Shown piece by piece: positions 29,568-48,937 of a stretch of 64,000 nucleotides of DNA. The DNA comes from Limisphaerales bacterium (lineage in GTDB: Bacteria > Verrucomicrobiota > Verrucomicrobiia > Limisphaerales > CAZKNW01): NCBI GenBank assembly GCA_965658675.1, contig CBFHTT010000013.1:158016-222015 (forward strand), read 5' to 3'. The first letter of the stretch is position 1; each line of letters opens with the position of its first letter. A model generated the notes under the pieces. The model saw only the letters and a list, made by a program, of their open reading frames with translations. It searched no databases and was not told the DNA's origin. The translations under genes were made by a program, and so were the position numbers.

Positions 29568-29576
29568 GGCGGTTTC

Positions 29577-30539
29577 ATGCTGAAGGCGCTATCAGCTAAG
29601 GAATGGTGCTTGATCTGGAGTGGTGTGGTTGCGGCCATTGCTATTAGAGTTCTTTCCAGACTTGTTCAGGCTGTTCCGATAGGTGGTGCGGAGACTTTTT
29701 CTTTGTTGGCAGTAATTGCGTTTTCACTTTTTCAGTTGAAGAGGGTCGTTGAACGGGGGCGCTCATGGGCGAGGTTCACTAGGGATCTAAAGGAACCTCA
29801 CAATATCACGGTGGTGATTCCTGCCCTTAATGAGGAGGGTCGTATCGAACAAACCGTTGGTGCTTTGGTAGCTAAAAGTGGAATTAAAGAGGTCTTGGTC
29901 GTCGATGGAGGAAGTGTTGACCAGACGGTCACCAAGGCCAAGGGAGCAGGAGCGCGTTTGATTGTTTCGAAAAAAGGGCGAGGGGCACAGATGCGAAAGG
30001 GGGCCGAAGAAGCCGTAGGCGATGTTGTCGTCTTCATGCATGCGGATACGACATTCTTGAAAGGTGGCGCGGACGAGATTCTAGAGATGCTCAAAGATAA
30101 GGCTTTTGTCGGAGGCGCGTGTTGGAAGCGATTCGCTGAGAAACATTGGGCCTTTCTCGGTGGTGAGTATCGTTGTGGGCAGAGAATGCTCTTGAGTGCG
30201 TTTGCGTTTGGGGATCAAACAATTTTTGTAAGAAGGGATGTTTTAGAGCGTGGTGGTGGATTTCCAGATGCTCCTCTCATGGAAGAGTTTGAGCTTTTTA
30301 AACGATTGCGAGCATGTGGAAGAGTAGGGCTTGCTGACGTGGTTGTTGAAACAAGTGCTCGAAAATTTCTCGAATTTGGGATTATTCGCTCATATCTGTT
30401 GATGGGGGGTGTTAGGTGCTTGTATCGGATTGGGACACCTTTGCGGGAACTCGAGTCAATCTATAGGCAGGGCTTTTCTTACTTTCATTCACCGAGGAGG
30501 GCGGTACGGCGATTGCTGGGTCGTCAGAGAAATGAATAA
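29577..30539 (+). CDS. GT2 glycosyltransferase resembling TIGR04283 (rSAM-associated transferase 2), with an N-terminal membrane extension
   Basis: VVIPALNEE, VVDGGS.D.T, GRG.QM..GA, HADT, FGDQ.IFVRR, GGFPD.PLMEE, TSARK. Confidence 0.82.
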   Translation: MLKALSAKEWCLIWSGVVAAIAIRVLSRLVQAVPIGGAETFSLLAVIAFSLFQLKRVVERGRSWARFTRDLKEPHNITVVIPALNEEGRIEQTVGALVAKSGIKEVLVVDGGSVDQTVTKAKGAGARLIVSKKGRGAQMRKGAEEAVGDVVVFMHADTTFLKGGADEILEMLKDKAFVGGACWKRFAEKHWAFLGGEYRCGQRMLLSAFAFGDQTIFVRRDVLERGGGFPDAPLMEEFELFKRLRACGRVGLADVVVETSARKFLEFGIIRSYLLMGGVRCLYRIGTPLRELESIYRQGFSYFHSPRRAVRRLLGRQRNE

Positions 30540-30634: not shown

Positions 30635-32371
30635 ATGGAACTGCCATTTCTAAATCGAGGGGCCAAAAAACGAGATCAGATTGTGGCGATTGATCTTGGT
30701 TCGCGAGTCACCAAGGCAGTCTACCTTCAGCGGAGAGGAGACTCATTCGCTTTGTCCAATTTTGTCATGCGGGATGCCCCCGTTTACGACAGGGGGATTT
30801 CAGCCGACAAACTTTCCGAGCACCTAAAGGATGTTCTCAATGACCTCGGAGCCAAGTCTAAACAAGTGACGTTGATTCTGGGACCAGGAGATTCATTGGT
30901 GCGAACAACGGAAATGCCAATGATTCCAACTATTCAGATGATTCAGATGCTGAAGGCCAATTCTAAGAATTACCTACAGCAAGATCTGAAAGATCATCTT
31001 TTTGATTGTCACATTCAGTTGCAGGCCATGGCCGGTGGTGAATCCGAAGAAGAAGGAAAAGGAGGGATGCAGAAATCCAAAGTCGTGGTTGGTGGAGCCA
31101 AACTCGAAATGGTGGACATCCTTCGTGAAGCCGCTCGTTTGGCTGGATTGACAATTGATCAAATCACGACGGGACTGGTCCAGCCTGCTAATGCTTTTGA
31201 GCAGGCAATGCCAGAGGTCTATGAGAAGGAAGTCGTGGCTCTCGTTGATTTTGGATACAAGAACTCCTCTATTTCTATTCTGATGATGGGTGAGCTTTGC
31301 CTAAGTCGCGTTGTTGGCTTTGGAGCGGCGAAGTTGACTACAGGTATCGCCGAGACACTTGGAATCACCAACGCCGAAGCGGAAGGTATCAAAATCGGAA
31401 TGCCTCAAGAAGTGGAATCAACAATCCAACCACTCTTGACACCACTAGGAAGAGAACTGAGAGCTTCGATTGATTTTTTTGAGCATCAACATGACACGAC
31501 CGTGAGTCAGGTGTTTTTCTCAGGTGGCTCAGCCTGTTCCGATTATGTTGTCCAAGCTCTTCAATCCGAATTGATGGTGCCTTGCAAGAGCTGGAATCCT
31601 GCTGACTTTCTAACTTTGGAACTTCCTCCTGAACGAATGGGTACAGTCGAACAGGTCGCACCTCAGTTGACTGTTGCTGTTGGAGCTTCCGCGATGATCA
31701 TTTATAGAATCATGCCGATTCAAATCAATCTATTGGCCGAAGAACATGCGGCCGAAGAATTGCGCCGGAAGGATCCGGTCAAGAAAGCTGGCTTTGCAGC
31801 GGGAGGCGTTGCCGGGGTGTTTGTCATCTGGGCAATCTTGGCAATTGTCCGTGTCATGTCTGCGGGCAGTGAGCTGTCAGCGCTAGAAGAGCAGCACGCA
31901 GCTCTCGCTGAACAGGAAACAGCGGTCAATGACAAGATTAAGGAAATCGATACTATTGATTCTAAGATCGGGGCTCTGCAGGATCTTGCCGTAGAAAGAG
32001 TGATTTGGGCAGATGCTTTGGATGCTCTCCAGCATTGTGTCGTAGATGGAATTCACTTCACTCGTATCACAACCAAACAGGAATATGCGCTGAAGGAAGA
32101 AGTCCGGCCACGCAGGGGGGAAGGTAAATACGAGCCCGCCGAGGCAACCGAGCGCATTATGGTGACAATTTACGCAACTGATACCAATGATTCCTACTCC
32201 AAGTTTATTGAAACTGTTGCCAATCATCCATTTTTTAAAGGAAAGTTGGGTGAAAAAGGCACGGTCAAGTTGTTGGAGCGAACGGCGCCTCAATCCAACA
32301 TTGAGAATCCTGATGTGATGTTCCGCAATATCGTCATTCGTTGCGTGTTCCCTGACACAGTTCGAAAATAA
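30635..32371 (+). CDS. pilM: PilM (actin-like) domain fused in frame to a PilN domain
   Basis: AIDLGS...KAV, ALVDFG, R....G...LT, ELRASIDFF, FSGG, LTVAVGA, then MPIQINLL + TM + coiled coil + WADAL ferredoxin-like PilN core. No stop codon between the two parts. Confidence 0.85.
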   Translation: MELPFLNRGAKKRDQIVAIDLGSRVTKAVYLQRRGDSFALSNFVMRDAPVYDRGISADKLSEHLKDVLNDLGAKSKQVTLILGPGDSLVRTTEMPMIPTIQMIQMLKANSKNYLQQDLKDHLFDCHIQLQAMAGGESEEEGKGGMQKSKVVVGGAKLEMVDILREAARLAGLTIDQITTGLVQPANAFEQAMPEVYEKEVVALVDFGYKNSSISILMMGELCLSRVVGFGAAKLTTGIAETLGITNAEAEGIKIGMPQEVESTIQPLLTPLGRELRASIDFFEHQHDTTVSQVFFSGGSACSDYVVQALQSELMVPCKSWNPADFLTLELPPERMGTVEQVAPQLTVAVGASAMIIYRIMPIQINLLAEEHAAEELRRKDPVKKAGFAAGGVAGVFVIWAILAIVRVMSAGSELSALEEQHAALAEQETAVNDKIKEIDTIDSKIGALQDLAVERVIWADALDALQHCVVDGIHFTRITTKQEYALKEEVRPRRGEGKYEPAEATERIMVTIYATDTNDSYSKFIETVANHPFFKGKLGEKGTVKLLERTAPQSNIENPDVMFRNIVIRCVFPDTVRK

Positions 32372-32378
32372 GCGATCC

Positions 32379-32969
32379 ATGAACAAGCTCTCAAAAGAAA
32401 AACAGCAGCAACTCATTGCCATTGGCATGGGAGTGGTGATGACGATCGGCGTGTTGTGGATGTTGGTGATCGGACCCAATGGAAAAAAACTGACCGACCG
32501 CACGACGCAGATTGCTACAAAATCTGAAGAACTGGCAAAAGCCCAGGATTTGGTCCAAAACGAATCCAAGACGGATGAAAAGCTCGATGAAAAGAAGGCG
32601 GAACTAGGAATCCTTGAAGCGACGATGGCCGATGGAGATCTCTATTTTTGGATGAATGAGCGTCTAGAAAGCTTTCAACGGAAATATGGGTTTGAAGTTG
32701 AGATCCCTAACGTTGAGCGTGAGCAAAAAATCGATGTCGGAGTGTTTCCTGATTTTGCATATGGTGGGGTTAAATACACAGTAAGTGGATCTGCCTTCTA
32801 CCACGAACTGGGTAAATTTTTTGCTTCTTTTGAGAATGAGAACCCCTATATCAGGTTGCAGAACTTGGATATCAAACCAATGGATTCCCTCGAAGGTGAT
32901 ACAGGGGATAAGCTTTCTTTTAGAATGGAAATTGTTGCACTCAGAAAACCGCAAGGAGACAGCGAATGA
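32379..32969 (+). CDS. pilO: PilO/GspM-like inner membrane alignment protein
   Basis: LSKEKQ + TM + coiled coil; YHELGKFFASFEN..PYIRLQNLDI. Confidence 0.8.
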   Translation: MNKLSKEKQQQLIAIGMGVVMTIGVLWMLVIGPNGKKLTDRTTQIATKSEELAKAQDLVQNESKTDEKLDEKKAELGILEATMADGDLYFWMNERLESFQRKYGFEVEIPNVEREQKIDVGVFPDFAYGGVKYTVSGSAFYHELGKFFASFENENPYIRLQNLDIKPMDSLEGDTGDKLSFRMEIVALRKPQGDSE

Positions 32970-33526
32970 AAGCAAAACTAAGAAGAGGCACCGATAAGTT
33001 ACTGCTTTCTGTAGCAGTCGCTGCGTTTACAGTTTCAACGCTGTCCCTAAAATCTGCTGAGGTTACCCCTGAGGAGACGGAAAAAGCAGAGGATGAGAGC
33101 GAAGAAGTCGTCATTCCTACGGCAATTTTCGTAGACGATTACAAGAATAAGGGCCTAGACCCTTTCTTCCCTAATTCAGATCGACGTTTACCTGAGCCGC
33201 CGAAGCCTGTGGTGAAGGAGGTGAAGGCTGAGGAGATGAAGAAAGAAGAAGAACCTCCACCTCCGCCACCTCCGACCGATCCCTATGATGATTTGGTGCT
33301 CAAAGGTGTTCTTGGTGGTCGTCGGCCAATTGCCACGGTCAGTACAACTGTAAAGAATTATCAAGTGGAGCCGGGTGAACAAAGAATCGTAAAGGTTCCT
33401 GATCACATCAATGGCGGAGTCAAGCAAGTGATGATGAAGGTCACCAAGATTGATGCAGATTCAGTCATGGTTATCATTGGCGATACAAGTGAACCGCGAA
33501 GCCTAAAAATGCCCGCTAAGAAATAA
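32966..33526 (+). CDS. PilP/GspC-HR-like periplasmic protein without lipobox
   Basis: DPFFP motif, poly-Pro linker, LVLKGVLG...IATV and V.KID.DSV; lies between pilO and the secretin; ATGA overlap with pilO. Confidence 0.7.
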   Translation: MKAKLRRGTDKLLLSVAVAAFTVSTLSLKSAEVTPEETEKAEDESEEVVIPTAIFVDDYKNKGLDPFFPNSDRRLPEPPKPVVKEVKAEEMKKEEEPPPPPPPTDPYDDLVLKGVLGGRRPIATVSTTVKNYQVEPGEQRIVKVPDHINGGVKQVMMKVTKIDADSVMVIIGDTSEPRSLKMPAKK

Positions 33527-33561: not shown

Positions 33562-35211
33562 ATGAAAGCTAAGTCCCTAGTCTTCCTCGCTTTAACTCTG
33601 TGCCTCACTTTTGGTTTGTGGGCGCAGGACAATGCCGCTCAGAGTGATGTGGTCACCGAAGCATCTGCAGATGCTGGCACTGAGTCTGCACAATCCCCTG
33701 ACGGTGATTCATCTGATGAGATAATTCCCAGTATTATTTTCGATGAAACACCAATCACCGACGTAATCACAACATTGGCGCGCCAAGCTGAGATTAACTT
33801 TGTTTTTGCGCCTGAGGTGACTGCACCGCAGGTTGGACCAGACGGAACCGAACTTCCTCCTACACTAGTTACCTTCCGATTCGAAAACGTGACTGCTGAA
33901 AATGCACTTACCGCCGTTTTGGAGAACCATAACTTGGAGTTGATCCCAAATACCAAGACTGGAATCGCAAGGATCGTGGTTAAAGATCCAAATAGGTTGG
34001 AGCCCCTGATAACCAAGATTCTTCAATTGGAACATGCCAGCCCTACCAACGTGGTTCAAGCTATTGAGGCTTCAATCTCAGAAAGAGGGAAAGTTGTTCC
34101 TGATTTCAGAACTAGTCAGGTTGTTATCATAGCGACCGAGAAGGAGTTCGAGGGAATTGACAACCTGATTGATAAGCTCGATATCGCGACTCCTCAGGTG
34201 TTGATCGAGGCAAGAATCATGGAGACGTCCATTAATCCTACGTCGATCAAGGGAATTGATTGGAGCGGAACTTTGGCGAATCAGAATTTCTCGTTTGGCA
34301 ATGGCCTCACTACCGGCGCTTCAACTCGGAGTGCTCCGGGAGCCAGTTCAACTACAACTCGTGTGTTGCCAACTGGAACCACGATCACAGAAACGAGTAA
34401 TGCTCCATCAGCAACTACCTCAACATATACCTCCACTTTGGGTAACGCCCAGCTGGCAGGTGTTCAGCCTCTTGGCGTCACGGCAAATATGTTGAGTGGT
34501 TTCAGCCCACAAACTGCATTTCTCAATGCGGATGGTGTTCGAGGAGTGTTGAGTTTTTTGAATACCGATTCCGATACAAAGGTTGTTGCAACTCCAAGAC
34601 AGGTCACTCTGGATAATCACACAGCAACGCTGGCTGTCACCAGAGCGTTCCCGATTTTTCAAATTACTCCCGGTTCTGCTAACTCTCCAGCAGGAGCACA
34701 AGTTACTTACACCAATCTTGGAACCATTCTTGAGGTGACACCTCGAATTTCTGCCAACAGTAATATTCATCTCACAGTTATTCCGGAGGTTTCAAATGTT
34801 GATTCCAAGGATACTCAGGTCATCAACGGTGAAGTCAATGAGGCCAATGTCTATGCCATTCGCCGAATGGAGACGCAGGTGATCATTCCTAATGGGAACA
34901 CTTTGGTAATGGGTGGATTGATGAATGACAATCGGACGACTGCTAATAACAAGGTGCCAGTTCTTGGAGATCTACCGGGATTGGGTCTGCTTTTCCGGAG
35001 GGACACAAAGATGGTTGATAAGATCAACCTCATTATCTTTATCACTCCAACAATCGTAGAAGATTACGATTATCAATACACACCTTCAGATTACCTCAGA
35101 AACTCCTTGGAACCGAGTGGCGCTCCAGTGAATTGGAAAGAGCCAGAGGAGCCTAGTCTTTCACCTTGGGATAGGGGGAAGCCGATGTCTTGGGGACGTT
35201 CTTCGAAATAA
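33562..35211 (+). CDS. pilQ: Outer-membrane secretin (PilQ/GspD family)
   Basis: N0 domain (F.ETPITDVITTLARQAEINF), N3 domain (IDKLDIATPQVLIEARIME), GIDW, ATP..TLDN..A, GTILEVTPRI, TLVMGGL, KVPVLGDLPGLGLLFR, LIIFITPTIV. Symbol assigned from MNOPQ gene order. Confidence 0.92.
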   Translation: MKAKSLVFLALTLCLTFGLWAQDNAAQSDVVTEASADAGTESAQSPDGDSSDEIIPSIIFDETPITDVITTLARQAEINFVFAPEVTAPQVGPDGTELPPTLVTFRFENVTAENALTAVLENHNLELIPNTKTGIARIVVKDPNRLEPLITKILQLEHASPTNVVQAIEASISERGKVVPDFRTSQVVIIATEKEFEGIDNLIDKLDIATPQVLIEARIMETSINPTSIKGIDWSGTLANQNFSFGNGLTTGASTRSAPGASSTTTRVLPTGTTITETSNAPSATTSTYTSTLGNAQLAGVQPLGVTANMLSGFSPQTAFLNADGVRGVLSFLNTDSDTKVVATPRQVTLDNHTATLAVTRAFPIFQITPGSANSPAGAQVTYTNLGTILEVTPRISANSNIHLTVIPEVSNVDSKDTQVINGEVNEANVYAIRRMETQVIIPNGNTLVMGGLMNDNRTTANNKVPVLGDLPGLGLLFRRDTKMVDKINLIIFITPTIVEDYDYQYTPSDYLRNSLEPSGAPVNWKEPEEPSLSPWDRGKPMSWGRSSK

Positions 35212-35263: not shown

Positions 35264-38200
35264 ATGCGAACCATGAAAAGATCAACGTCGGTAGGAAGCA
35301 TTGTTAGCTGCTGCGCATTCCTTCTTGGTGCAATAGCAATGTTCCCTGGGAGCGATGCAATTGCTCAAGCGACAGTCGAATCGATTGCTGGTGCACCTTC
35401 AAGTAGTGCGTTTGATTCATTCGACGGGTTTGTCGATGGGCCTTTCGTTGGTGAAATCTCGACAGGTGAGGGAGCCTCGAATGTCCCAGTAGCGCAATTT
35501 AACAACCCCAGTGCTTTGGCTTTGGGGCTAATGGGTGATCGAGTATATGTGGCCGATGCCGGAAACGATGCACTTCGGGTCTTGAATCTTACGGATAGCA
35601 AGACCGAGACCTTGGTGAATCTGGCTGCTGGTTCTGCACCTGTTGATGTCAAGGTCGATGCGGCAGGGGATATATATGTTTTGAATCAAGGATCGGGAAA
35701 GATTTTGAAATTCAACATTCATGGGAACGCGTTGGCAACCATTAACGGAACGGATCTGGTTTCACCCACGGCCTTTGCAATTGATGCCAACAATGATTTC
35801 TATGTCGTTGAGTCTTCGGGAGCACTTAAAAAGGTGACAACCTTGACGGGTGTTGTAACGGTTATTCCTGTGACAGGTGGCGCGCTGGTAACTCCAAGGG
35901 GAATAGTAGTTTTGGATAATGGTGATTTGGCTGTTTCAGATAGTGGAAATCATGTCGTAAGAATAATGACAGTAGCTGGTGCAATTCAGCAAACAATAGG
36001 TTCTGTAGGAACTTCTGGACGAGTTAATGGTGCTGCTACATTCGCGAGGTTTAATAGTCCCGGGAAAATTGCCAAAGCCGGTGCAGATGTTCTCGTGTTG
36101 GCCGACACCCTCAATCATCGAGTGGTTCAGATTGCTGCTGATCGAACTGTGACACTCCTTTACGGTGCTGATCCGGCTCAGTGGCAGGGGTTGCCTTCCA
36201 CTATTCTATATCTTCCTGGCTGGGATGATGGCGAAGGTGACGTTGCTTGGGCTCGCAACCCTGAGGGAATTACTGTGATAGGAAATGGTGATGTTTACAC
36301 TTCAGAGGTGTTCTACCACAACATCCGAAGGGTGGTTGACACAGGTCTGCAGGGCCCGTCAGGAAGCGTCAATTTTGGTAGTAATGGAACCAATGCCGTT
36401 GTCAATCCGCCTTCGGTAACCATGTCTCCTCTATCTGGTTACTTTCCGACAGGAGTTGATGTTGAAGTGGCAAGTGCTTCCACAAATGTCTTCTATACGA
36501 CAGATGGAACAGAGCCCACGACCAACTCAGTTCGTGTACCAATGAGCAATGGTAAGGGAACAATCAGATTCTTTAATTCTTTGGCCGACCTTCGAAATCT
36601 ATCAGTGTCGGCGTTTTTAACGGTCGGTTCGAATACTGTATCCTCTAACATCGTCGGGACTGCGTCACCGTCCAATCAAGTTGGAGTTCCTAGAGATTTT
36701 ATGGCCGGCCCTGGAGCGACCATTGTGTTACCTGTGATTATTAATCTAGTTCCTGGTCAAGAAATTCGATCGATCGGATTTAAACTGGCGGTGAGACCCG
36801 ATCCCGGAAATATGGTACCAACTGCTATCCCTGCAAATGAACTGAAATTCATAGGAACGTCTACGAACGATTTCGTACCATTGGTTGCTCCTTCTACTGA
36901 CGGTGGTGCGGTTACATTCTTTTCGGGGCCAGAATTCTTCAATGCTGCCACGATGGAACGCTCAATCGACTACGCGGCTCTTGGTGTAACAAATTTTGGT
37001 GTATCCGATTTTGCTGCTTTAGCTCTGGCTACGGTAAAAATTCCGAACACAGCTGTTGTTGGTGACGTCTTCCATGTGGAGGTAAAGAACATTTCAGGTA
37101 CTTCTGATGGAGTCCAAAACGATGTCTCCCTGAGCGGTTTGACTGCTAGAACGATTACAATATCGGATAGCTTGACCTATATTGCGGGAAACACCGCTCC
37201 CGGTGTTTGGTATAATGCTGGTGAGTTTGGAGATGCTGGAACTTTTCAATCGCTGAAGATTAGCGATGTGAACAATGCGTTTCTGGCATCGCAGGGAATC
37301 AAAAAGCCATTTGATTTTAGTGATGTCTTTAATGCCATGGACATTGCTCCTAGTGAGGCCGTGGGTGGTACAGCAGACGGTGACGGTACGATCAATATCG
37401 AGGATTGGACGTTGGCATTGAATCGCGTCTTGGGTAACGACACCAATAATTTTGCTCGTAGATGGTCGCTGGGCGGCACACGCGTAAGTCAAGCAACTGC
37501 CTCCAATGGTGACGCAAATTTTGCCCCTAACAGTGTTCCTTTGAACTTGAGCCCAGGGCTTTTGGGAGATGTCTGGACAAAACATGCAAGGCTTTTGGTT
37601 GGGGCAGTGAGCTCTCCGCAGAACGGGGATTGGATTGAAGTTCCGATCACATTGGATGTTTTTGAGGGTATTACCCTCGATGCTATCGCTTTTACCATTG
37701 CGGTTGAAGCCGAGGGTAATGCCCCTGCCCTAAATTTGGTAGACACTGTTTCTTGGGTGCGAAGCCAGAATTCTCCGGTGCTTTATGAGAGAGCAATAGA
37801 ACAAGGTGTTATTCTTGGATGGTATGGTGCTTACAGTGGCACGATAGAGCTTGGTAAACTAAGATTCAGAATTCCATTAGAGGCCGAGCAAGGAGATTGC
37901 TATCGGATAGGATTGCGCCTCCCAGAGATTAGTCCTACAGGAGATCAATTGGGTTTTGTTGAGTCATTTTCTGGTTGTATAAAGGTGAATGAAGAAAACG
38001 AGGAATCTGAATTACGAGTCTCTGACGAATGGTTGGAAACATTCTTGTCTGGATATCCTGATGCCTTGCGTGATCTGACCAAAGATGCAGATGGGGATGG
38101 TCAAACCAATTGGCAGGAGTATCTAGCGGGAACGGATCCCAGTGACGTATTGTCTAATTTGGGGTTCTCGAATTCCAGGCTTAAGGACAGTGAAATCAAG

Positions 38201-38371
38201 TTGAGGTGGATATCTGCTCCGCTGAAGGAGTATATCATCGAGGCAACATCAGATTTTTCGAATGGTCAATGGGAAGAGGTTGATCGAGTTTCAGGCACCG
38301 GGGGGGTGATTGATTTCCCTCAAGACTTGAGTGGCGGACCTCGTTTCTATCGAATTCGAATCGCTGAATAA
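35264..38371 (+). CDS. Large secreted protein A: NHL propeller, FN3-associated domain, cohesin-like, dockerin-like, cohesin-like, RFYR C-terminal module
   Basis: Signal peptide; NHL blades (FNNPSALA..VYVADAGNDALR; VSDSGNHVVR; ADTLNHRV); FYTTDGTEPT; AGPGATIVLPV; DGDGTINIED; DADGDGQTNWQEYLAGTDP; RFYRIRIAE. Confidence 0.75.
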   Translation: MRTMKRSTSVGSIVSCCAFLLGAIAMFPGSDAIAQATVESIAGAPSSSAFDSFDGFVDGPFVGEISTGEGASNVPVAQFNNPSALALGLMGDRVYVADAGNDALRVLNLTDSKTETLVNLAAGSAPVDVKVDAAGDIYVLNQGSGKILKFNIHGNALATINGTDLVSPTAFAIDANNDFYVVESSGALKKVTTLTGVVTVIPVTGGALVTPRGIVVLDNGDLAVSDSGNHVVRIMTVAGAIQQTIGSVGTSGRVNGAATFARFNSPGKIAKAGADVLVLADTLNHRVVQIAADRTVTLLYGADPAQWQGLPSTILYLPGWDDGEGDVAWARNPEGITVIGNGDVYTSEVFYHNIRRVVDTGLQGPSGSVNFGSNGTNAVVNPPSVTMSPLSGYFPTGVDVEVASASTNVFYTTDGTEPTTNSVRVPMSNGKGTIRFFNSLADLRNLSVSAFLTVGSNTVSSNIVGTASPSNQVGVPRDFMAGPGATIVLPVIINLVPGQEIRSIGFKLAVRPDPGNMVPTAIPANELKFIGTSTNDFVPLVAPSTDGGAVTFFSGPEFFNAATMERSIDYAALGVTNFGVSDFAALALATVKIPNTAVVGDVFHVEVKNISGTSDGVQNDVSLSGLTARTITISDSLTYIAGNTAPGVWYNAGEFGDAGTFQSLKISDVNNAFLASQGIKKPFDFSDVFNAMDIAPSEAVGGTADGDGTINIEDWTLALNRVLGNDTNNFARRWSLGGTRVSQATASNGDANFAPNSVPLNLSPGLLGDVWTKHARLLVGAVSSPQNGDWIEVPITLDVFEGITLDAIAFTIAVEAEGNAPALNLVDTVSWVRSQNSPVLYERAIEQGVILGWYGAYSGTIELGKLRFRIPLEAEQGDCYRIGLRLPEISPTGDQLGFVESFSGCIKVNEENEESELRVSDEWLETFLSGYPDALRDLTKDADGDGQTNWQEYLAGTDPSDVLSNLGFSNSRLKDSEIKLRWISAPLKEYIIEATSDFSNGQWEEVDRVSGTGGVIDFPQDLSGGPRFYRIRIAE

Positions 38372-38384
38372 TATGTAGGAAAAA

Positions 38385-41300
38385 ATGGAAACTAGATCCA
38401 TGAACAACCCAAGATTAAGATTTTTTATTAGAGTAAGTGCGATTGATATAGTGTTTGCTTTGGTGGTGCTGATTGTTTGTGGAGCTAGCGCACAGTCTGT
38501 CTCCACATTAACCAACGCTGGTTTTGTCGGCCCGCACAGTGTTGTTATTGGTCAATCAGGCGATTATTACATTACCGATAGTGGAGGAAATCGAATTCTT
38601 AAATATGATCCTGATACCGATTCTCTGACGACACTTGCCGGAAGCACTCTCGGGCTATCGGGATCGACTGACGGTGCCGGTGGAGTTGCTCTCTTTAATC
38701 AACCGAAGGGAATTATTGTAGCAAGAGGAGGCTTGGTTGTCGCTGATTCTCAAAATCATACGATTAGAAAGGTTGAATACGATGGCACGGTCAGCACCAT
38801 AGTCGGTAGTGCTGGTGATTTTGGGTTTGTAGATTCTCCTGTACCTGCTACCGCGCGATTTCGATTTCCAACCGGCTTGGCCGTGAATGCTGGAGGTGAA
38901 ATTTTTGTCGCTGATTCAAATAATAATGCTATTCGTAAGATCGATGGAGCTGATGTCGTGACTACAGTTGTCATGGGACTGTTCCAACCGAATGCTGTTG
39001 CAGTAGATGACACTAGTGATTTGTGGGTTGCTGATACGAGAAACCATCAAATTAAGGAATTCGCATCGGATGGAATGCTGAAGGCTACTTTCGGTACCGG
39101 TTTTTCCGGTGCTGTTGATTCTGAAGTTGGAGCAACTGCTTCGTTTTCCAATCCACGGGGTATTTCTTTTCTAAGTGCAACTGGTGGTCTCATCGTTTCG
39201 GATACTGGTAATAATACTGTTAGACAGTTAAAACCAAATGCGCTGCTTTCTACATATTCTGTTAACACAGTTAGTGGTTTGGCAGGAAACTCAGGAAATA
39301 TGGACGGCGAATTGGCTGTTGCTACGTTTAATGCACCTATAGGAGTTATCTCTGACTCTATTGGTGGAAGTGTGTTGGTGATCGATAGTGCCAGCTCTAC
39401 AGGAGTGGGAGGCGCCTTGCGCCAGATTCAGACTAGTCCACCACAACCTCAGATTTCAGCTCCAATGATTGGTTATACAGCAAAGTTCACGAACATGAAC
39501 GGGGTTGTGAGTACTCGTTTTGAAGGCGTAATAAATGGGATCTTCAATAATGAAGTTCACCTGGCAATCATAGGAGAAACAGGAGTTGAAACCAAATTCA
39601 CACACGGAGCGACACCATCGGACCCTTTTAACGACACGATTTCAGAACCAAACGAAACTTCTGCTACAGCCCCATTCTATGAGACTGGGCAGTTTAATTT
39701 TCCACCGGAGTTACTGAGTCCTCTACTTCCTGATTTGACCATTAAGTCAATCAGTTCGAGCCCAGGTCGTAAGAGCAGCACAGTCGCTATAGCTAGATTT
39801 CAGTTTAAGGTGGCTAATCCATCTGTGGACGGCGACAATGCCGTCTCATTTGTTATTCGTAATCAGACTGAAGGAGCGCAGATGTTCTACACTACAAATG
39901 GCGTCGATCCGCATGCGGTCTTTGATGATAATGTTGCAGATCCAAATGTTTTTGGCCCAATTGACTCCGATACCAGTCTTTCACTCGAAATTGGTGTTGC
40001 CGACCTCACTTTTAAAAGTCGTGGTTTCAAAGAAAATTTTCAATCGAGTGGTGTTTATACGACTGTGTTTTCGCCAACAAATTTCAGTGCAAATAAGTTA
40101 ACATTCGGATTCGAACAAGGCGAAGCAAGTAGTCAGTTTGTAGGCGCCGCTGGACAGAATTTCTATGCTCCAGTAACACTTTCGTTGCTGAATGGTGCGC
40201 CAATGAATGGGCTTATTTTCAATATTTCTGCCACTAATGTTGCAGCAGCGCCGAATATCACGGGAGCTCTGACATTTCAAAGTATGCTGGAAGCGATTAT
40301 TCCGGACACCGATCCTCCAGCGTTTACAAATCTAGCTCCTTCCTTCGCAACATTTGATGCTATTCCTAAAGTTATTGCGCCAGGAAATGAGACAAATTTG
40401 GTGTTTACCAATGGTACGGTCACTACCGGAAATGATATAAATTTGCTAGGAGTTGGGTATCTTGAGGATCCAACACGTGCGAATCTGTATGACCCAACCC
40501 TACAAAATTTGGTAACTTTTTCTCGGGCGCTGAATAACAGGTTTAATTCAGCTGGAGATAAAGTCATTCTGGGTGGTTTTGGGTTTCCAATACCATTGGG
40601 AGCAGGTGTTGGCTCGGAATATAGGATTAGAGTGAATCGATCTTCCGGTGTAGTTGGGTTTGAACAAGAAGTCATCATCGTGGCTCCTACAACTGGGACA
40701 ACGGGCGCTGGAAGCCTTAATGCTATCAAACATGTTAGTGTTGGTAATCCCGGTTTCGTGGTAGGTGATGCTATGCCTTTTGGCTGGTTCAATGCCGGTG
40801 ACTTTGGTGATACCAATTTGTTGGCTAACGATTTGTTGCAGGTCTTTCAGGTAGCAGCATATCCGAATGGGCTCCCTCCTTCAGGAAGTGATCTATACAA
40901 AGCGATGGATTCATCTGATGGGTCAGTGATTTTTACATTTGATGGGTTGGATAATGCAGCAATTGACGCAGTTACTACAGGTGATGGAGCAATTGGGATT
41001 GATGATGTATTTATCACATCTCGTAGGGCGCTTGACTCAACACTAAAATGGTACCGGCGGTTTTATGATGCTGGAACGCTAACGACAGTCGAGATTGCCA
41101 ACCAATATAAGGGTGAGACCGATTCAGGTCTTGCGAACCTTCCTCCGTTGGAGTTAGGGGGACAGGCAAATCAACCAGAACAAGAACTTACAAATGATCG
41201 GCCTCAGGCTAGATTCTTTGCCGGTGATGTGGTTGTTCCTGATGGTTTCGATGAGGTCTTGGTCGAAGTATTCGCCGATATTCGCGGTTCCCATGCTATG

Positions 41301-42014
41301 AGAGTCTTCTTAATGAACCTTTCTGTTCATGCACTTGATGGGGCACCGGCGATTGATCAGCAGATCACTTTTGAACCAGTCTCTGCCCTTGGTGCACCTA
41401 ATCAACAATCTAGCCTTTACGGTAAGGGGAATTATTCTGCCGCTTGGATGAACCCGTCATTTGAAGGCTTTTCCAATGGTGTTAATAGGATCGGTTGGCT
41501 GAGGGTTTCTATCCCTGAAGGTGCGACACCGCAGTCTGCCTACTGCGTATCTTTCGAAAAAGTTTCTGCCAGTCCTAATGGATATGGGTTGATGAAAACC
41601 AAAACGAGGTGTGGCATCATCACTCTGACAAACCGTGATCAGTCATCTCTGGCGGATGGATTGCCTGATCTGTGGAGGCTCCGTCATTTTGGTTCAGCTT
41701 TGAATGTTCTCTCTCATGCGGACGCCGACGCAGATGGTGACGGTGTGCCAAACTGGAAAGAGTTCAGAGCAGGGACTCATCCAAACGATAGGAATTCTCG
41801 TCTAGCACTGGCTTCTAGAATAGAAGCTGGTGGTGTTAAATTGAGATTTCCGACAAGTGATGCAAAACGTTATGTAATTGAATGTTCTGACACTCTCTTC
41901 GGCGAATGGTCTATTGTTTCTCCAATCATCACTGGCGACGGTGATATGATGGAGCATACAGAGCAAGTGGGAGCTAACGGAAGATTCTACCGTGTGCGTC
42001 TGATTGAGGAGTAA
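38385..42014 (+). CDS. Large secreted protein B, paralog of A with the same domain order
   Basis: Signal peptide; NHL blades (FNQPKGI..VADSQNHTIRK; FRFPTGLAV..VADSNNNAIRK); FYTTNG.DP; GAAGQNFYAPV; GDGAIGIDD; DADGDGVPNWKEFRAGTHP; RFYRVRLIEE. Confidence 0.75.
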   Translation: METRSMNNPRLRFFIRVSAIDIVFALVVLIVCGASAQSVSTLTNAGFVGPHSVVIGQSGDYYITDSGGNRILKYDPDTDSLTTLAGSTLGLSGSTDGAGGVALFNQPKGIIVARGGLVVADSQNHTIRKVEYDGTVSTIVGSAGDFGFVDSPVPATARFRFPTGLAVNAGGEIFVADSNNNAIRKIDGADVVTTVVMGLFQPNAVAVDDTSDLWVADTRNHQIKEFASDGMLKATFGTGFSGAVDSEVGATASFSNPRGISFLSATGGLIVSDTGNNTVRQLKPNALLSTYSVNTVSGLAGNSGNMDGELAVATFNAPIGVISDSIGGSVLVIDSASSTGVGGALRQIQTSPPQPQISAPMIGYTAKFTNMNGVVSTRFEGVINGIFNNEVHLAIIGETGVETKFTHGATPSDPFNDTISEPNETSATAPFYETGQFNFPPELLSPLLPDLTIKSISSSPGRKSSTVAIARFQFKVANPSVDGDNAVSFVIRNQTEGAQMFYTTNGVDPHAVFDDNVADPNVFGPIDSDTSLSLEIGVADLTFKSRGFKENFQSSGVYTTVFSPTNFSANKLTFGFEQGEASSQFVGAAGQNFYAPVTLSLLNGAPMNGLIFNISATNVAAAPNITGALTFQSMLEAIIPDTDPPAFTNLAPSFATFDAIPKVIAPGNETNLVFTNGTVTTGNDINLLGVGYLEDPTRANLYDPTLQNLVTFSRALNNRFNSAGDKVILGGFGFPIPLGAGVGSEYRIRVNRSSGVVGFEQEVIIVAPTTGTTGAGSLNAIKHVSVGNPGFVVGDAMPFGWFNAGDFGDTNLLANDLLQVFQVAAYPNGLPPSGSDLYKAMDSSDGSVIFTFDGLDNAAIDAVTTGDGAIGIDDVFITSRRALDSTLKWYRRFYDAGTLTTVEIANQYKGETDSGLANLPPLELGGQANQPEQELTNDRPQARFFAGDVVVPDGFDEVLVEVFADIRGSHAMRVFLMNLSVHALDGAPAIDQQITFEPVSALGAPNQQSSLYGKGNYSAAWMNPSFEGFSNGVNRIGWLRVSIPEGATPQSAYCVSFEKVSASPNGYGLMKTKTRCGIITLTNRDQSSLADGLPDLWRLRHFGSALNVLSHADADADGDGVPNWKEFRAGTHPNDRNSRLALASRIEAGGVKLRFPTSDAKRYVIECSDTLFGEWSIVSPIITGDGDMMEHTEQVGANGRFYRVRLIEE

Positions 42015-42021
42015 TAGCAGC

Positions 42022-43473
42022 TTACTTGATCGAGAGGTTACTCTGGATATTAAACTTTTCGATTCGTTTTCTTAAGGTTGCTCTAGTAATGCCTAGCAGC
42101 TTTGCTGACTTCACTTGATTCCCTCCCGTCTCATTCAACGCGTGAATAATAAGTTCTCGTTCTACGGCCGGCAGGATAGCAAGGTCCTTATCCTTCTTGG
42201 CTCTTTCGAACAAGATAGACGCAATGGAAGCCATATCCGACTGATCTTGAGAAGCCTTCTCAGAATTTCCATCACCTACTGGACTTGACAATTGTGTTTC
42301 GACTTCCAGGGTAATTTCACTCGGTAAATCGTTCGGCAGAATGGCATTGCCTTTGGCTACCACGATTGACCTTTGAATCACATTCTCTAGCTCCCTTACA
42401 TTTCCTGGCCAGTCGTGGGCTTCAAGAGCTGTATGGACATCTTCATGTATAGCCTTGGGCTGTTCCCGATTCTGTTTGGCAAATTTTTGAAGGAAGTAAT
42501 TAACCAATAATGGTATGTCGCCTTTCCTTTCCCTCAATGAAGGGAGTTTAATTCTGACAACGTTGAGTCGATAGAATAGGTCTTCGCGGAACTCTTTATC
42601 TTTTACCGCATCTTCAAGCGGTTTGTTTGTTGCTGCGATGATGCGAACGTCGACCTTGATTGGGTTGTTGCCTCCCACCCGGTCAATGGTTCCTGATTGA
42701 AGAACACGTAGGATCTTGGTTTGCGTAGGAAGGCTCATATCCCCGATTTCATCAAGGAATATTGTCCCCCCATCGCATTGTTCAAACTTTCCAATGCGTT
42801 GAGAAGTCGCGCCTGTGAAGGCTCCCTTTTCATGACCAAATAGTTCGCTCTCGAGGAGATTCTCAGGAATAGCAGCGCAATTGATCGCAATGAATGGTTG
42901 GCCGGATCTAGGACCGTGATGATAAATGGCTCTCGCCACCAATTCTTTTCCGGTACCGCTCTCACCCGTTATCAAACAAGTTGCATCTGCTGTTGAGACT
43001 TGGCCAATCAGTTTAAAAACTTCCTGCATGGCTGGGCTACGGCCTATGACACCAGTGTCGTAGTCTTCATTTTCCAACATCGGCTCATAGGAAACCACCT
43101 TTCTCATATCTCTGCTCGCCTTGAGGGCGCCGGAGACAATCGCTTTCAATTTTTCAATATCGAAGGGTTTGAGTAGGTAGTCATGAGCCCCAAGCTTCAT
43201 CGCTTCGATCGCGGTTTGGGTGGTTCCAAATGCCGTCATGATGATGACCGGCAACTTTCTATCGAAATCGCGAATCTTCCTTAAGGTCTCCAATCCGTTC
43301 ATCCCTCCCATTCTGACATCCATGATTACTAGATCGGGCTTCTCGACAGGAATCTTTTCAAGACCCTCTTCACCGCTGGAAGCTGTTGCAAACTCAATTG
43401 GGTCGTTTGCAAAAGTTCTTTTGAAAGAGTAGTGAACGTCTGTTTCGTCGTCGATTAGAAGAATTTTTTCCAT
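42022..43473 (-). CDS. Sigma54-dependent NtrC-family response regulator
   Basis: Receiver (IDD, MDVRM, KPF), GESGTGKE, ESELFGHEKGAFTGA, FREDLFYRLNV, WPGNVREL, Fis-type HTH. Confidence 0.95.
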   Translation of the reverse strand: MEKILLIDDETDVHYSFKRTFANDPIEFATASSGEEGLEKIPVEKPDLVIMDVRMGGMNGLETLRKIRDFDRKLPVIIMTAFGTTQTAIEAMKLGAHDYLLKPFDIEKLKAIVSGALKASRDMRKVVSYEPMLENEDYDTGVIGRSPAMQEVFKLIGQVSTADATCLITGESGTGKELVARAIYHHGPRSGQPFIAINCAAIPENLLESELFGHEKGAFTGATSQRIGKFEQCDGGTIFLDEIGDMSLPTQTKILRVLQSGTIDRVGGNNPIKVDVRIIAATNKPLEDAVKDKEFREDLFYRLNVVRIKLPSLRERKGDIPLLVNYFLQKFAKQNREQPKAIHEDVHTALEAHDWPGNVRELENVIQRSIVVAKGNAILPNDLPSEITLEVETQLSSPVGDGNSEKASQDQSDMASIASILFERAKKDKDLAILPAVERELIIHALNETGGNQVKSAKLLGITRATLRKRIEKFNIQSNLSIK

Positions 43474-43532: not shown

Positions 43533-44645
43533 TCAAACATCTGCGTCGTTTGCAGATGAAGACAATTCACTCAAATGATGAGGCGCTTTGAAGGCTAGAT
43601 ACACAATTCCTCCGATCAAACTCCAAAGAAGGCTTCCTGCGTAGGCCAATAGGGACAAGGAAAGAGCTGATGCGGGGTCAGCCATGATCGCTGTAGAGGC
43701 GAGTAGGGCGACCATAAGGTTCTCGCGGACTCCCAGACCGCTTGGCGTAATGGGAAGCGCTGCTACGCAAATGACTGCGGGCACAATGAATAGGAGTTGC
43801 GAAAGGCTCACATCAATGTTTAGTCCCGTCGCAAGGATAAGGAATTGGAAGACGCAAAGGAGGTTCAAGATCGTTGAGAGAATGAATGATTTTAGAAGGA
43901 ATTTGGGGGATTTAGAAAAATTACGGCATGCCTCGAGAGATTTGACGATTGATTCGGCTGCGGTGAAGCGATGAATGGTCTTTCCTATCAACGAATTTCG
44001 GGAAGGCGAATGCCAAAATGCCACCCATACCATGAAAGTGCATGCGGTGAACATGGCTGCAACCAATGCTAGAGTTGCCAGTGATTTGGGATCTTTCTCG
44101 AACAAATTTGTGTTAAATGCAGCTGCCCCAACCGCAAAGAGCAGCATTGAAAAGAGCCCTATGAGACGATCGGCAACAACCGTAATTACCGCTTCGCCTT
44201 TTTTGTGTGATGTTTCGCGTGCAGCATACCAAGCCTTTATGAGATCTCCGCCAGTCGAACCCAATAGGAAGGAATTGAAGAAATGCGCAACGAAAGAGAT
44301 CTCGCAAGCCCTAGTGAACGGGAGCGGAAGCCCTTGAACACTCAGTGCCAGTCTCCAGCGGATGATACCAATAAAGATGGTCCCTCCCATCACTAGGAAT
44401 GAAAAAGCGAACGTCGGCAGGGGAACCTGACCGATCGTAGTCAGTAGGAGCTCTGGCCCGTTCGACCATCCTTCAGTCCATTGCTGCGAGCGGGATAGAG
44501 TTTCCCACGCTGGCTGATCGTCGCTTCTGTGGAGTTTTGCCTCTTCTACGAAAATCGAATGAAAGATCCAGACAAGAAGCAATAGGCTCAGGCAGAACTT
44601 GCCTGCTGCGATGAGCTTCTTTCTTGGGTTTTCTTTCGGGGCCAC
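43533..44645 (-). CDS. Lysylphosphatidylglycerol synthase TM / UPF0104 flippase-like membrane protein
   Basis: RW..L, FFN.FL.GSTGGD..KA, DRLIGL, LPITPSGLGVRE; GTG start. Confidence 0.88.
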   Translation of the reverse strand: MAPKENPRKKLIAAGKFCLSLLLLVWIFHSIFVEEAKLHRSDDQPAWETLSRSQQWTEGWSNGPELLLTTIGQVPLPTFAFSFLVMGGTIFIGIIRWRLALSVQGLPLPFTRACEISFVAHFFNSFLLGSTGGDLIKAWYAARETSHKKGEAVITVVADRLIGLFSMLLFAVGAAAFNTNLFEKDPKSLATLALVAAMFTACTFMVWVAFWHSPSRNSLIGKTIHRFTAAESIVKSLEACRNFSKSPKFLLKSFILSTILNLLCVFQFLILATGLNIDVSLSQLLFIVPAVICVAALPITPSGLGVRENLMVALLASTAIMADPASALSLSLLAYAGSLLWSLIGGIVYLAFKAPHHLSELSSSANDADV

Positions 44646-45112: not shown

Positions 45113-45205
45113 TGATTTTAAAATTGAAAACTTAACGAAGGAGGATAATCTGTCGCCGTCTTAGTGATCGTCAGCAGCCGGTTATTGGCAGAAATATCGT
45201 TAAAA

Positions 45206-48200
45206 ATGGGTAATTCAGAGATTTTCGAATTGTTTGAGCAGGATAGGGCGGCCTGCTACGAAGCTTTGCTTGATGAGCGCATCGTTGTGATTGATGGAGC
45301 CATGGGGACAATGATCCAACGGCATAAGCTCGAGGAGAAGGACTTTCGGGGTGAGCGTTTCAAGGATTGGAAAACAGACGTAAAGGGAAACAACGATCTC
45401 CTGAATCTCACGAGGCCTGAGATCATCGAGGAGATTCATTTTCAATATTTGGAAGCCGGGGCGGATATCATTGAAACGAACACCTTCAACGCGCAGTTCC
45501 TTTCTTTGGCTGATTATGGGATGGAAGATCTGGCCTATGAGATCGCAATGGCTGGAGCGGAGGTCGCGCGAAGGGCAGCTGATCGATTCCTTAAATCACA
45601 GGATGAGAGAGTTTGTTTTGTTGCTGGAGCAATGGGGCCGACGAATAAGATGTCTTCCATATCGACTGATGAAAACGATGCCGCAGCGAGATCGACCCAC
45701 TATGATGACCTAGTCGCTGCTTATTATGAGCAGGCCAAGGGGATGGTCGATGGCGGTGTAGATATTCTGATCGTTGAAACGATCTTTGATACGCTAAATG
45801 CACGTGCTGCGTTCTTTGCCATCGAGAAGCTTTTTGATGAAATAGGAAGGCGACTTCCATTGATGGCTTCAGTGACTTTCATTCAGAAGGATGGGAATCG
45901 TGGAGTGACAGGGCAGACAGTTGAAGCATTCTGGAACTCCATTTCGCATGTGCCACTGGTGAGCGTTGGAATGAACTGCGCATTGGGCCCGAAGGAGATG
46001 CGCCCATTGATCGAGGAGCTTGCAAACGTTGCTTCAGTCCGAGTCAGTGTTTATCCAAACGCAGGATTGCCCAATCCACTTCTTCCGACTGGTTTCCCAG
46101 AGACCCCGGAGACGCTTGCACCCCAACTTAAGGAATGGGCAGGAAATGGATGGCTGAATCTTGTGGGTGGTTGTTGCGGGACGACTCCTGATCATACACG
46201 TGAAATTGCAAAAGCCGTTAAAGGACTGAAGCCCCGTGTCGTTCCCGAAAAGACCCCATGCTTGCGATTGAGTGGCTTGAGTGCACTGACGGTTAATGAG
46301 CTCAGTAATTTCGTAAATGTAGGAGAGCGGACCAATGTCACAGGTTCTCCCAGGTTCGCCAAGCTGATCAAGGCAGAGAATTATGATACCGCATTAAGTG
46401 TGGCTCGGCAGCAGGTTGAGAACGGGGCTCAGATCATCGATATTAACATGGATGAGGGCATGTTGGATTCAGAGAAGTGCATGACACATTTTCTGAACCT
46501 GATCGCGTCTGAGCCAGATATTGCAGAAGTCCCAGTGATGGTTGACAGCTCGAAGTGGTCAGTAATCGAAGCTGGTCTGAAGGTGCTCCAAGGAAAGGGC
46601 GTGGTAAACTCCATCAGTCTCAAAGAAGGTGAGGATAGGTTTCGTGAACAAGCGAGATTGATCCGCCGATACGGGGCTGCCGTTGTGGTGATGGCGTTTG
46701 ATGAACAAGGACAGGCGGATAACTTGGAACGCAGAAAAGAGATCTGTGGGCGTTCCTATCGGATCCTAACTGAAGAAGTCGGGTTTCCTCCTCAAGATAT
46801 CATTTTCGATCCGAACATTCTGACCGTAGCCACTGGAATGGATGAGCATAACAACTATGCTGTCGATTTCATTGAGGCTGTTCGATGGATCAAAGAAAAC
46901 CTGCCACATGCCTATGTAAGTGGAGGTGTAAGTAATATTTCGTTTTCGTTTCGAGGCAATAACGGTGTCCGTGAAGCGATGCACTCTGCGTTTCTTTATC
47001 ACGCTGTGAAGGCAGGGTTGGACATGGGGATTGTGAATGCCGGAATGCTCGGCGTTTATGAAGATATTCCCAAGGATCTGCTCGAGAGGGTAGAGGACGT
47101 GTTGCTGAATCGCAGGGATGACGCGACGGAGCGCTTGGTCACTTTTGCTGAAACAGTCAAACAGGACGGAAAGAAAGAGGCAGTCGTTCAAGAGTGGAGG
47201 TCATTGCCTGTTGAAGAGCGACTTTCGCATGCCTTGGTCAAAGGAATTGTCGATTTTATCGAAGAGGATACAGAAGAAACTCGGGCGAAATATGGACGCC
47301 CGATTTCGGTCATCGAAGGACCATTGATGGACGGCATGAATGTCGTGGGCGATCTGTTTGGCTCGGGAAAGATGTTTCTTCCGCAGGTTGTGAAGAGTGC
47401 TCGTGTGATGAAGAAGGCAGTGGCTTATCTCCAGCCTTTCATGGAAGCCGAGCAAGCAGAGACCGGTGCGGAGCCTCAGGGAAAGATCGTTATGGCGACA
47501 GTGAAGGGCGACGTTCATGACATTGGGAAGAACATTGTTGGTGTTGTCTTACGCTGTAATAACTACGAAGTGATCGACCTTGGCGTCATGTGTTCTTGCG
47601 ACAAGATTCTGGCAGCGGCGAAAGAGCATGGTGCTCATATCGTTGGACTCAGTGGTCTGATCACTCCGTCTCTGGACGAGATGATTCACGTAGCAAAGGA
47701 AATGGAACGACTTGGCTTCAAACAACCTTTGTTGATCGGTGGAGCCACCACAAGTAAGGCCCATACAGCAGTCAAGATTGCACAGCACTACAGCCAGCCA
47801 GTTGTTCATGTGCTGGATGCATCAAGGGCTGTTCCCGTAGTTGGTAGTCTTCTGAGTAACGACCAGAAGGAGCCCTTTGTTGCAAAGTTGGAAGAGGAAT
47901 ATGAAGGCGTCCGGAAATTGCATGCCAATCGTCAAAGCAAGCCACTGGTTAAGATCGATGCTGCTCGTGAACAAGGGATTAATCTTGATTGGTCGGGCTA
48001 TCAGCCGCCGAAGCCTACATTCTTGGGAACAAAAGTAGTCAGCTCTAATCCAGAAGACGGAGAGGAGAAGGTTACTCTTTATGAGTTGGTCGATTACATT
48101 GATTGGACTCCGTTCTTTCATTCATGGGAGCTGCGGGGGCGTTATCCTGCCATTCTGAAGCATCCGAAATATGGTGACGAAGCGAAGAAACTCTATGGGG

Positions 48201-48937
48201 AGGCGCGTGAAACACTTCAGGAGATCTGCGAGAAACAACTGTTTGGTCTGAAGGGTATTTATGGATTCTATCCAGCCCGGCGTGAAGGAGATGATGTCAT
48301 TCTCTATACCGATGATGACCGTAAGAAAGAAAGGACAAGGTTCCATTTCTTGCGACAGCAATCGGAAAAGGACACAGGGAAGCCTTACATGAGTCTCTGT
48401 GATTTCGTGTCTCCTCATGAATCAGCTCCTGATTATGTCGGTGGATTTGCAGTAACCTCAGGGCACGGAATGAAGGAACTCGTGGATGGCTTTAAAGCAG
48501 CTGGAGACGACTATAAAGCCATCATGTATGAAGCATTGGCTGATCGCCTTGCTGAAGCCTTTGCCGAGTACTTGCACAAGAAATCACGCATTGACTGGGC
48601 TTATGGGAAGGACGAATCACTGTCGAACGACGATATGATAGCCGAGAAGTATCAAGGCATTCGTCCTGCAGCTGGCTACCCAGCGTGCCCCGATCACACG
48701 GAGAAAGGAACACTTTGGGAGCTGCTTGATGCAAAGGAACTTACCGGGATCGAGCTTACCGAAAGTTATGCCATGTGGCCGGCAAGCAGTGTCAGTGGCC
48801 TCTACTTCTCCCATCCTGAATCCAAATACTTTGCAGTTGGCCAACTAGCCAAGGATCAGGTTGAAGACTATGCCGGGCGCAAGGGAATGACCGTCGAGGA
48901 TGCAGAGCGTTGGCTGGCGCCATATCTGAACTACTGA
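45206..48937 (+). CDS. metH: Cobalamin-dependent methionine synthase
   Basis: [42 protein letters not shown] (B12 binding), [12 protein letters not shown]. Start 45206 (alternative 45164). Confidence 0.97.

Follow-up and report, generated by a model that had tools for sequence, protein, structure and literature searches.

Two neighbouring genes in a 64,000-nucleotide stretch of Limisphaerales DNA (positions 158,016 to 222,015 of contig CBFHTT010000013.1, assembly GCA_965658675.1; hereafter the window) encode the large proteins A (1035 residues; 35264..38371) and B (1209 residues; 38385..42014), each of which carries a block of a cohesin-like, a dockerin-like and a second cohesin-like module (Coh-Doc-Coh). 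All features given below lie on the forward strand unless stated otherwise. The predicted folds of the three modules in the A core, the homology of its two cohesin modules, the inheritance of the block as one unit and its linkage to a secretin operon are shown here, and A and B are best read as proteins that a Limisphaerales-type Verrucomicrobium exports or displays on its surface. From the predicted structures we propose, with a probability of roughly 45%, that the block forms a compact, self-engaged Coh-Doc-Coh junction, closed in cis or between identical chains, within a secretin-associated surface protein that bears an NHL propeller. The best-known role of cohesin-dockerin pairs is to hold together the cellulosomes of Firmicutes, and for most non-cellulosomal pairs we know of no assigned role. 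New relative to known systems is that non-cellulosomal modules of both kinds form a fixed block of three, with a Pfam-invisible expanded-loop dockerin and a link to a secretin operon; neither the block nor its secretin link was found in the literature searched, which comprised titles and the starts of abstracts and left most subscription journals and supplements outside.

From translation together with Pfam, profile and model matches, the domain order of A is a signal-peptide-like N-terminus (by eye), an NHL propeller (Pfam NHL, E 3.5e-15), a CHB_HEX_C/Fn3-associated domain (CHB_HEX_C_1, E 2.1e-6), cohesin 1, dockerin, cohesin 2, a TSP3 repeat and a C-terminal beta-sandwich. B is a paralogue of the same architecture with longer inserts (NHL, E 1.2e-31), and in either chain the stretch between propeller and block holds one or more CHB_HEX_C domains of Ig-like type. 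BLASTP aligned residues 639-1035 of A to 791-1208 of B with 27% identity over 426 residues (E 7e-31), and the N-terminal NHL regions could likewise be aligned, a likeness far above chance expectation. The motif WYNAGEFGD occupies residues 649-657 of A (nt 37208-37234) and GDGTINIED residues 706-714 (nt 37379-37405), with WFNAGDFGD (801-809; nt 40785-40811) and GDGAIGIDD (866-874; nt 40980-41006) in B. The strings AGPGATIVLPVIINL and VGAVSSPQNGDWIEVPITLD begin at residues 481 (nt 36704) and 779 (nt 37598) of A, and GAAGQNFYAPVTLS and AGDVVVPDGFDEVLVEVFAD at residues 587 (nt 40143) and 946 (nt 41220) of B. A preliminary description of the window had cited these strings as marks of a dockerin with inserted loops between cohesin-like domains, and all of them are present at the positions claimed. 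Pfam and NCBIfam searches with whole A, whole B and eight pieces of them returned no cohesin and no dockerin (Pfam pieces to E<=10); in particular, PF00963 (gathering score 24.1 bits) did not match the A and B pieces even at E<=10. Towards their C-termini (37976-38368 in A, 41622-42011 in B) both proteins show an acidic TSP3-type repeat (DADGDG...NWxEYxAGTxP), after which comes a beta-sandwich with an FYR(I/V)R end. The family profile matched this last domain to a discoidin-type domain from a Paenibacillus glucanase/chitosanase (2rv9_A, 4zxe_A; E 2.9e-4); it could be a carbohydrate-binding or anchoring domain.

Modelling of the A core (441 residues) by AlphaFold2 from an 83-row alignment led to a mean predicted local distance difference test (pLDDT) of 91.0 and a predicted template modelling score (pTM) of 0.89, with all-beta modules at core residues 1-169 and 301-441 and, between them, three helices and a beta-hairpin. 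The first module (residues 470-638 of A; 36671..37177) was superimposed by VIA-align on ScaC cohesin 3 (4uyp_C) with Z 14.1 and a root-mean-square deviation (rmsd) of 2.5 Å over 141 of 146 residues, and the second (residues 770-910; 37571..37993) on CaCohA2 (6kgf_C) with Z 14.8 and an rmsd of 2.7 Å over 131 of 147 residues. A fold search of 48,161 chains, carried out independently of Foldseek, placed cohesins at all of ranks 1-16 (Z 14.7-11.1), with the Archaeoglobus fulgidus cohesin 2xdh at Z 13.6; the first non-cohesin was the adhesin domain of CLIPPER (Z 10.9), followed by pilin-type sandwiches below Z 10. When the core model was compared with the PDB by Foldseek, the best single-domain matches were again cohesins (target TM-score 0.57-0.71). 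In sequence, A and B share only 11-19% identity with solved cohesins, and the profile of the A family reached the ScaE cohesin 2zf9_A for module 1 (E 0.015) and two chains named 'Cohesin domain number 2', 10uv_A and 10ux_A, for module 2 (E 0.049 and 0.079). Some homologues reach the Pfam family: PF00963 matched 7 of 18 A-type homologues at E<=0.1, and among 10 inspected individually a single one exceeded the gathering score (30.2 bits). Homologues in this set were matched in module 1. The two modules of A are homologous to each other (hhalign probability 98.5%, E 3.3e-15, 123 columns), and in a feature search of the ESM Atlas the nearest clusters were cohesin and cohesin/dockerin clusters (score 0.95). 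The models thus support the cohesin fold for both modules of A.

For B the cohesin-like and dockerin-like assignments are supported by homology. Its module 1 (residues 570-790; 40092..40754) was assigned from hidden Markov model (HMM) and profile matches, namely the A-type model of cohesin 2 (coh2), which matched at about residues 588-634 (independent E-value 0.018), and the B-type profile, which matched the ScaE cohesin 2zf9_A with E 0.11. Module 2 (residues about 943-1085; 41211..41639) was detected by BLASTP to cohesin 2 of A and by the family coh2 HMM, at about residues 941-1070 with an independent E-value of 1.5e-15. Among 30 B-type cores, 7 matched PF00963 at E<=0.1 in one or other module, the best with E 9.7e-6. 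The module between them (residues 791 to about 900; 40755..41084) carries the motifs given above and was recognised by the family dockerin HMM (about 790-902; independent E-value 1.1e-13). The description of the core as cohesin-like, dockerin-like and cohesin-like thus holds for A, from predicted structures, fold searches and Pfam Cohesin hits of homologues, and extends to B by homology only.

The middle module of A (residues 639-746; 37178..37501) was also folded alone (115 residues; pLDDT 91.9, pTM 0.86). The model contains helices at 31-41, 52-57 and 77-87 and a hairpin at 94-110, that is loop, helix, short helix, loop and helix, the topology of a dockerin, and then the hairpin. In the wide VIA search only 14 of the 48,161 PDB chains reached Z>=2, and all 14 were dockerins; the best was the type I dockerin 2ccl_B of Clostridium thermocellum (Z 7.3, rmsd 1.6 Å, 62 of 62 residues). 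We regard this match as convincing despite the modest Z because the list is exclusive and the coverage complete. According to the model the middle module is a small fold of three helices that contains two loop-helix (F-hand) units. That the motif region consists of two such units was part of the preliminary description; the units appear in the model, but as an internal sequence repeat they are only weakly detectable (hhalign P 0.0017, 22 columns). In A-type and B-type alignments both loops can be read as D, 13 residues, D-G-x-(I/L)-x-x-x-D and a helix. As the conserved D stands 14 residues before loop position 5 in each repeat (D643 to D657 and D693 to D707), each loop appears to contain about 10 inserted residues between positions 1 and 5 of the canonical loop, and in this the proposed dockerin with inserted loops agrees with the A/B family. 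The family consensus keeps D at loop positions 5 and 12 (D657, D668, D707, D714), and two 12-residue Ca loops with D or N at positions 1, 3, 5, 9 and 12 are not a feature of the family. The second loop of A (T-A-D-G-D-G-T-I-N-I-E-D) is nearer to the canonical form than the consensus, and it was matched by Pfam EF-hand_1 with E 0.056. Among PDB chains phmmer searches with the cores found only the DocCel5 dockerin 5nrk_B (E 0.63). With the dockerin model, the structurally sensible top rows of Foldseek were dockerins at target TM-scores of 0.62-0.68.

Between dockerin and cohesin 2 lies a linker of low confidence in the core model (residues 747-769; 37502..37570), with a pLDDT of 47-49 in core blocks 281-300 and values below 50 at core residues 282-284 and 287-295. 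A pTM of 0.89 despite this linker indicates that the contacts between modules within one chain are confidently placed. For the complex of the A core with the B core (516 residues, 30-row alignment) the predicted scores were 0.00 and 0.24, with the mark at 0.32; made without controls, this prediction counts neither way.

A search with the A core (36671-37993) against 1.84 billion cluster representatives found 312 proteins at E<=1e-3, of which 237 also passed E<=1e-10 and 183 passed E<=1e-30, which corresponds to a family of at least 312 clusters at 50% identity. Since 131 of the 150 best representatives span the core in one stretch (start within the first 15 residues, end past residue 405), the three-module block is inherited as one unit. 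Block-bearing homologues are about 1000-1900 residues long, and the database names of 10 of them are 'hypothetical protein' or absent. In 132 aligned A-type cores the most conserved part is the dockerin module, with the consensus YxVGDxxPGxWYNAGDFGDGxLxNxDVNNAFYASLG...FSDxFDAMDAFPxD...GGDGxIRFLDWQxILxRSLRLD. Positions G642, G656, D668, D687 and D714 are invariant and W649 (122/132), Y650 (128/132), F655 (130/132) and W715 (124/132) nearly so, and in 30 aligned B-type cores the W, N, A, G, D, F and G of WFNAGDFG do not vary. The motif shared by A and B is therefore a signature of the whole family, as its near-invariant positions demonstrate. Of 201 genomes sampled from the order, 74 gave a B-type orthologue at E<=1e-8 (50 of 142 among high-quality genomes). 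With the A-type query, 14 of 41 genomes gave a match at E<=1e-5, the own genome included, and some of these were weak matches located on B-type genes. Relatives with the family are labelled Verrucomicrobiota, Limisphaerales or Pedosphaera, one being a Limisphaera isolate, and a few metagenome-assembled genomes (MAGs) bear plainly different labels. Several public MAG records with the family are titled, for example, Klebsiella, Akkermansia muciniphila, Bifidobacteriaceae, Saccharimonadales or Acidoferrum, probably through mislabelling or mis-binning.

A and B are the last genes, and a conserved tail, of an operon of pilM-like, pilO-like and secretin genes. It begins with a PilM-like protein with a C-terminal extension (578 residues; 30635..32371; Pfam PilM_2 E 6.5e-23; NCBIfam pilM 1.7e-27 and Amuc_1101_fam 1.6e-21, both below cut-off), followed by a PilO/GspM-like protein (196 residues; 32379..32969; Pfam T2SSM E 3.1e-4; NCBIfam T2SS_GspM 2.5e-8, below cut-off), a conserved open reading frame (ORF) of 186 codons (32966..33526) and the secretin (549 residues; 33562..35211; Pfam Secretin E 4.5e-42 and Secretin_N 3.6e-8; NCBIfam GspD 1.2e-59 and PilQ 1.3e-51, both below cut-off). 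The 186-residue product has no match in Pfam or NCBIfam, but tblastn located a counterpart at the same position in 10 of 14 related loci, and its place in the operon suggests a PilP-like protein. These 14 loci were the ones with upstream DNA at hand. In all of them the secretin gene lies directly upstream of an A-type or B-type gene and is itself preceded by a PilO-like gene, with a PilM-like gene wherever the contig extends that far. Nine loci contain one to three A-type copies and then one B-type gene; the other five contain a single B-type-like gene and no A-type there. Among the operon genes scanned with Pfam no pilin gene was recognised.

The modules were compared with known systems. With the type I cellulosomal cohesins of C. 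acetobutylicum (CaCohA2, 6kgf) and A. cellulolyticus (ScaC Coh3, 4uyp) those of A share the beta-sandwich over nearly the whole domain at weak sequence likeness, and the same fold is found in the non-cellulosomal cohesins of Archaeoglobus fulgidus (2xdh) and C. perfringens (2vo8/2jh2). Unlike known cohesins, the modules of A and B fall below PF00963 detection, occur in a Gram-negative Verrucomicrobial host, belong to a secretin operon and are accompanied by no dockerin-bearing enzymes that we could find. The middle module has the three helices and two loop-helix units of type I dockerins (C. thermocellum Xyn10B, 2ccl_B; R. flavefaciens group 1, 5m2o_B), and the second loop of A, D-G-D-G-T-I-N-I-E-D with the helix after it, is dockerin- or EF-like. 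It differs from them by about 10 extra residues per loop (GD, 13 residues, DG...D), a conserved beta-hairpin after helix 3 and the missing PF00404 match, and its Ca binding is putative. Cohesin and dockerin on one chain are known from adaptor scaffoldins such as ScaA of A. cellulolyticus and from cohesin+dockerin proteins of Archaeoglobus fulgidus. A and B resemble these in uniting both modules on one polypeptide, but are distinguished by the fixed Coh-Doc-Coh order, zero or short linkers, the predicted compactness (pTM 0.89), the NHL fusion and the secretin operon.

The operon itself is best read, from profile matches, as a distant relative of the pilus-like cluster Amuc_1098-Amuc_1102 of Akkermansia. 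For Akkermansia muciniphila, PMC10688800 describes a gene cluster for a type IV pilus whose PilQ is located in the outer membrane, and in that description, as here, secretin and PilM-like genes occur together with genes for outer-membrane or pilus-associated proteins. Weak NCBIfam matches were observed for the PilM-like protein (given above), the secretin (Amuc_1098_fam, 9.2e-22) and the C-terminus of B (Amuc_1099_fam, 1.7e-5). All matches lie far below the cut-offs, so that these are not equivalogs, and the gene order differs. The Amuc_1099_fam profile has 321 positions compared to 1035 and 1209 residues of A and B, and the model (NF042425) gave 19.6 bits for A and 24.6 bits for B against a cut-off of 50, matching only at model positions 125-182, a TSP3-like stretch. 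Neither NHL nor Coh-Doc-Coh features in the account of the Amuc cluster consulted in PMC10688800.

In the reading we favour, the dockerin would be engaged by one or both cohesins of its own chain, or by an identical chain with the help of the flexible linker of roughly 20 residues. The engaged core would then be a rigid, possibly Ca-stabilised stalk or junction, which stiffens or oligomerises the protein and presents the NHL propeller outside the cell, and the co-encoded secretin machine would be needed for export or anchoring. Several points weigh against this. The dockerin assignment comes from a predicted structure, its best Z of 7.3 falls in the range graded as middling for VIA, and the Foldseek E-values of the dockerin model are all above 0.1 (best 0.3), with no match at E<=0.001. 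At E<=0.1 PF00404 (Dockerin_1) matched none of the 18 A-type and none of the 30 B-type members, and hhalign against 30 canonical dockerins from related genomes aligned only the second loop-helix (23 columns; probability 5%, P 0.0074). At canonical spacing, loop positions 1 and 3 do not conserve their Ca ligands but show G, F or any residue. Moreover, engagement in cis is read from the pTM alone and secretin export from gene order only, the modules of B were assigned by homology, and the signal peptides of both proteins were judged by eye.

Part of these data would also fit a protein in which the folds have been kept and the binding lost, the modules serving as rigid beta-sandwich spacers with a small helical connector in a stalk, much like the Ig-like domains of adhesins. 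Such a loss would agree with the insertions of about 10 residues that break the Ca-ligand pattern in both loops, with the non-significant sequence similarity to canonical dockerins, with the further spacer domains CHB_HEX_C and TSP3 in the chains, and with the generic pilin and adhesin beta-sandwiches that match the cohesin modules at Z 9-10.9. True cohesins nevertheless score 3-4 Z units above these sandwiches, the three modules are always inherited together, and the dockerin helices and loops, many positions of which are conserved to at least 90% in 132 sequences, are too conserved for a passive connector; we therefore consider passive spacers rather unlikely. The modules might instead bind the machine that is encoded with them, either the periplasmic or outer face of the secretin or a pilin-like fibre, in which case A and B would be PilY1-like tip proteins or gate-associated adhesins. 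The strict secretin linkage in 14 of 14 loci and the weak Amuc_1099-like C-terminal region would fit such a role, and the beta-propeller with an acidic loop presumably recalls PilY1. Yet neither Pfam nor NCBIfam detected PilY1/PilC similarity in A or B, and the absence of pilin genes from the operon genes scanned also speaks against it, which leaves this explanation with a small chance.

The preliminary description had inferred from two cohesins and one dockerin per chain that A and B could form branched polymers or dock other enzymes, the dockerin of one chain binding cohesins of others. One dockerin fold and two cohesin folds per chain were indeed predicted, 9 of 14 loci have A-type and B-type genes side by side, often with two or three A-type copies, and the flexible linker before cohesin 2 makes domain-swapped binding in trans sterically possible. 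In the own genome (94.5% complete; 20,587 six-frame ORFs of at least 80 residues), however, the suggested search for further proteins with the WxNAGxFGD motif returned only A and B, and so did the family HMMs for cohesin 1, dockerin and cohesin 2. PF00963 and PF00404 gave nothing above cut-off there (best E 0.86 and 0.2, respectively), with no PF00404 match at E<=1 at the A/B locus. As no other related or canonical cohesin or dockerin is present, there are no enzymes to dock, and if the dockerin binds at all, its only candidate partners are the four cohesins of A and B. Matching modules on other proteins, which characterise a cellulosome-like scaffoldin, are thus missing, and a reading of A and B as an enzyme-recruiting scaffold of that kind is not supported. 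In addition, an A-B heteropolymer cannot be the general mechanism, because five genomes encode a single B-type and no A-type protein after the secretin, and, to judge from a pTM of 0.89 for the core as a monomer, the modules would already be satisfied in cis. Other proteins, most of them very large, carry canonical PF00404 dockerins in 42 of 101 genomes of the order, and these could in principle be recruited there, but in 18 of 18 genomes holding both they lie on other contigs than the A/B locus. Taken together, A-B polymers or scaffolds appear quite unlikely. Within the order, the open frames that hold such canonical dockerins reach 10,000-12,000 codons and so encode giant proteins.

A further arrangement, to which we give only a slim chance, is a non-pilin appendage in which secretin-exported Coh-Doc-Coh units assemble head-to-tail by domain swapping across the linker, with the B-type protein obligatory and the A-types accessory, to form an NHL-displaying fibre or ring. 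If true, cohesin-dockerin pairs would here hold together a structure that depends on a secretin, and would do so in Gram-negative Verrucomicrobia. For the favoured self-engaged junction, binding of the modules to each other would mean a concrete non-cellulosomal role for such a pair, as a junction by which a secretin-linked surface protein latches onto itself or self-assembles, and would define an expanded-loop dockerin variant missed by current Pfam models. The fusion of Coh-Doc-Coh with NHL, hard-wired to an operon similar to those of type IV pili and type II secretion in a large family of 'hypothetical proteins', also offers a handle on export and display by the poorly understood pilus-like secretin clusters of Verrucomicrobia, those of the Akkermansia Amuc_1098-1102 type included.

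Genes on both sides of the operon were annotated as well. Upstream, adjoining the pilM-like gene, are a radical SAM protein (Pfam Radical_SAM, 2.1e-15) and a GT2 glycosyltransferase (28299-30539); the latter exceeds the NCBIfam cut-off for TIGR04283, 'arsenosugar biosynthesis glycosyltransferase' (191.7 vs 182 bits), and tblastn, at the E thresholds applied, found a match to neither protein in the related loci analysed. Convergent to B, on the reverse strand, lie genes for a sigma-54-dependent response regulator (42022-43473) and a protein of the lysyl-phosphatidylglycerol-synthase-TM family (43533-44645). The response regulator gene adjoins the B-type gene in four related genomes, three of which also have the synthase-like gene, and this regulator may control the secretin operon. 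Farther downstream, 45164-48937 (forward strand) encodes an ordinary MetH, a complete five-domain cobalamin-dependent methionine synthase.

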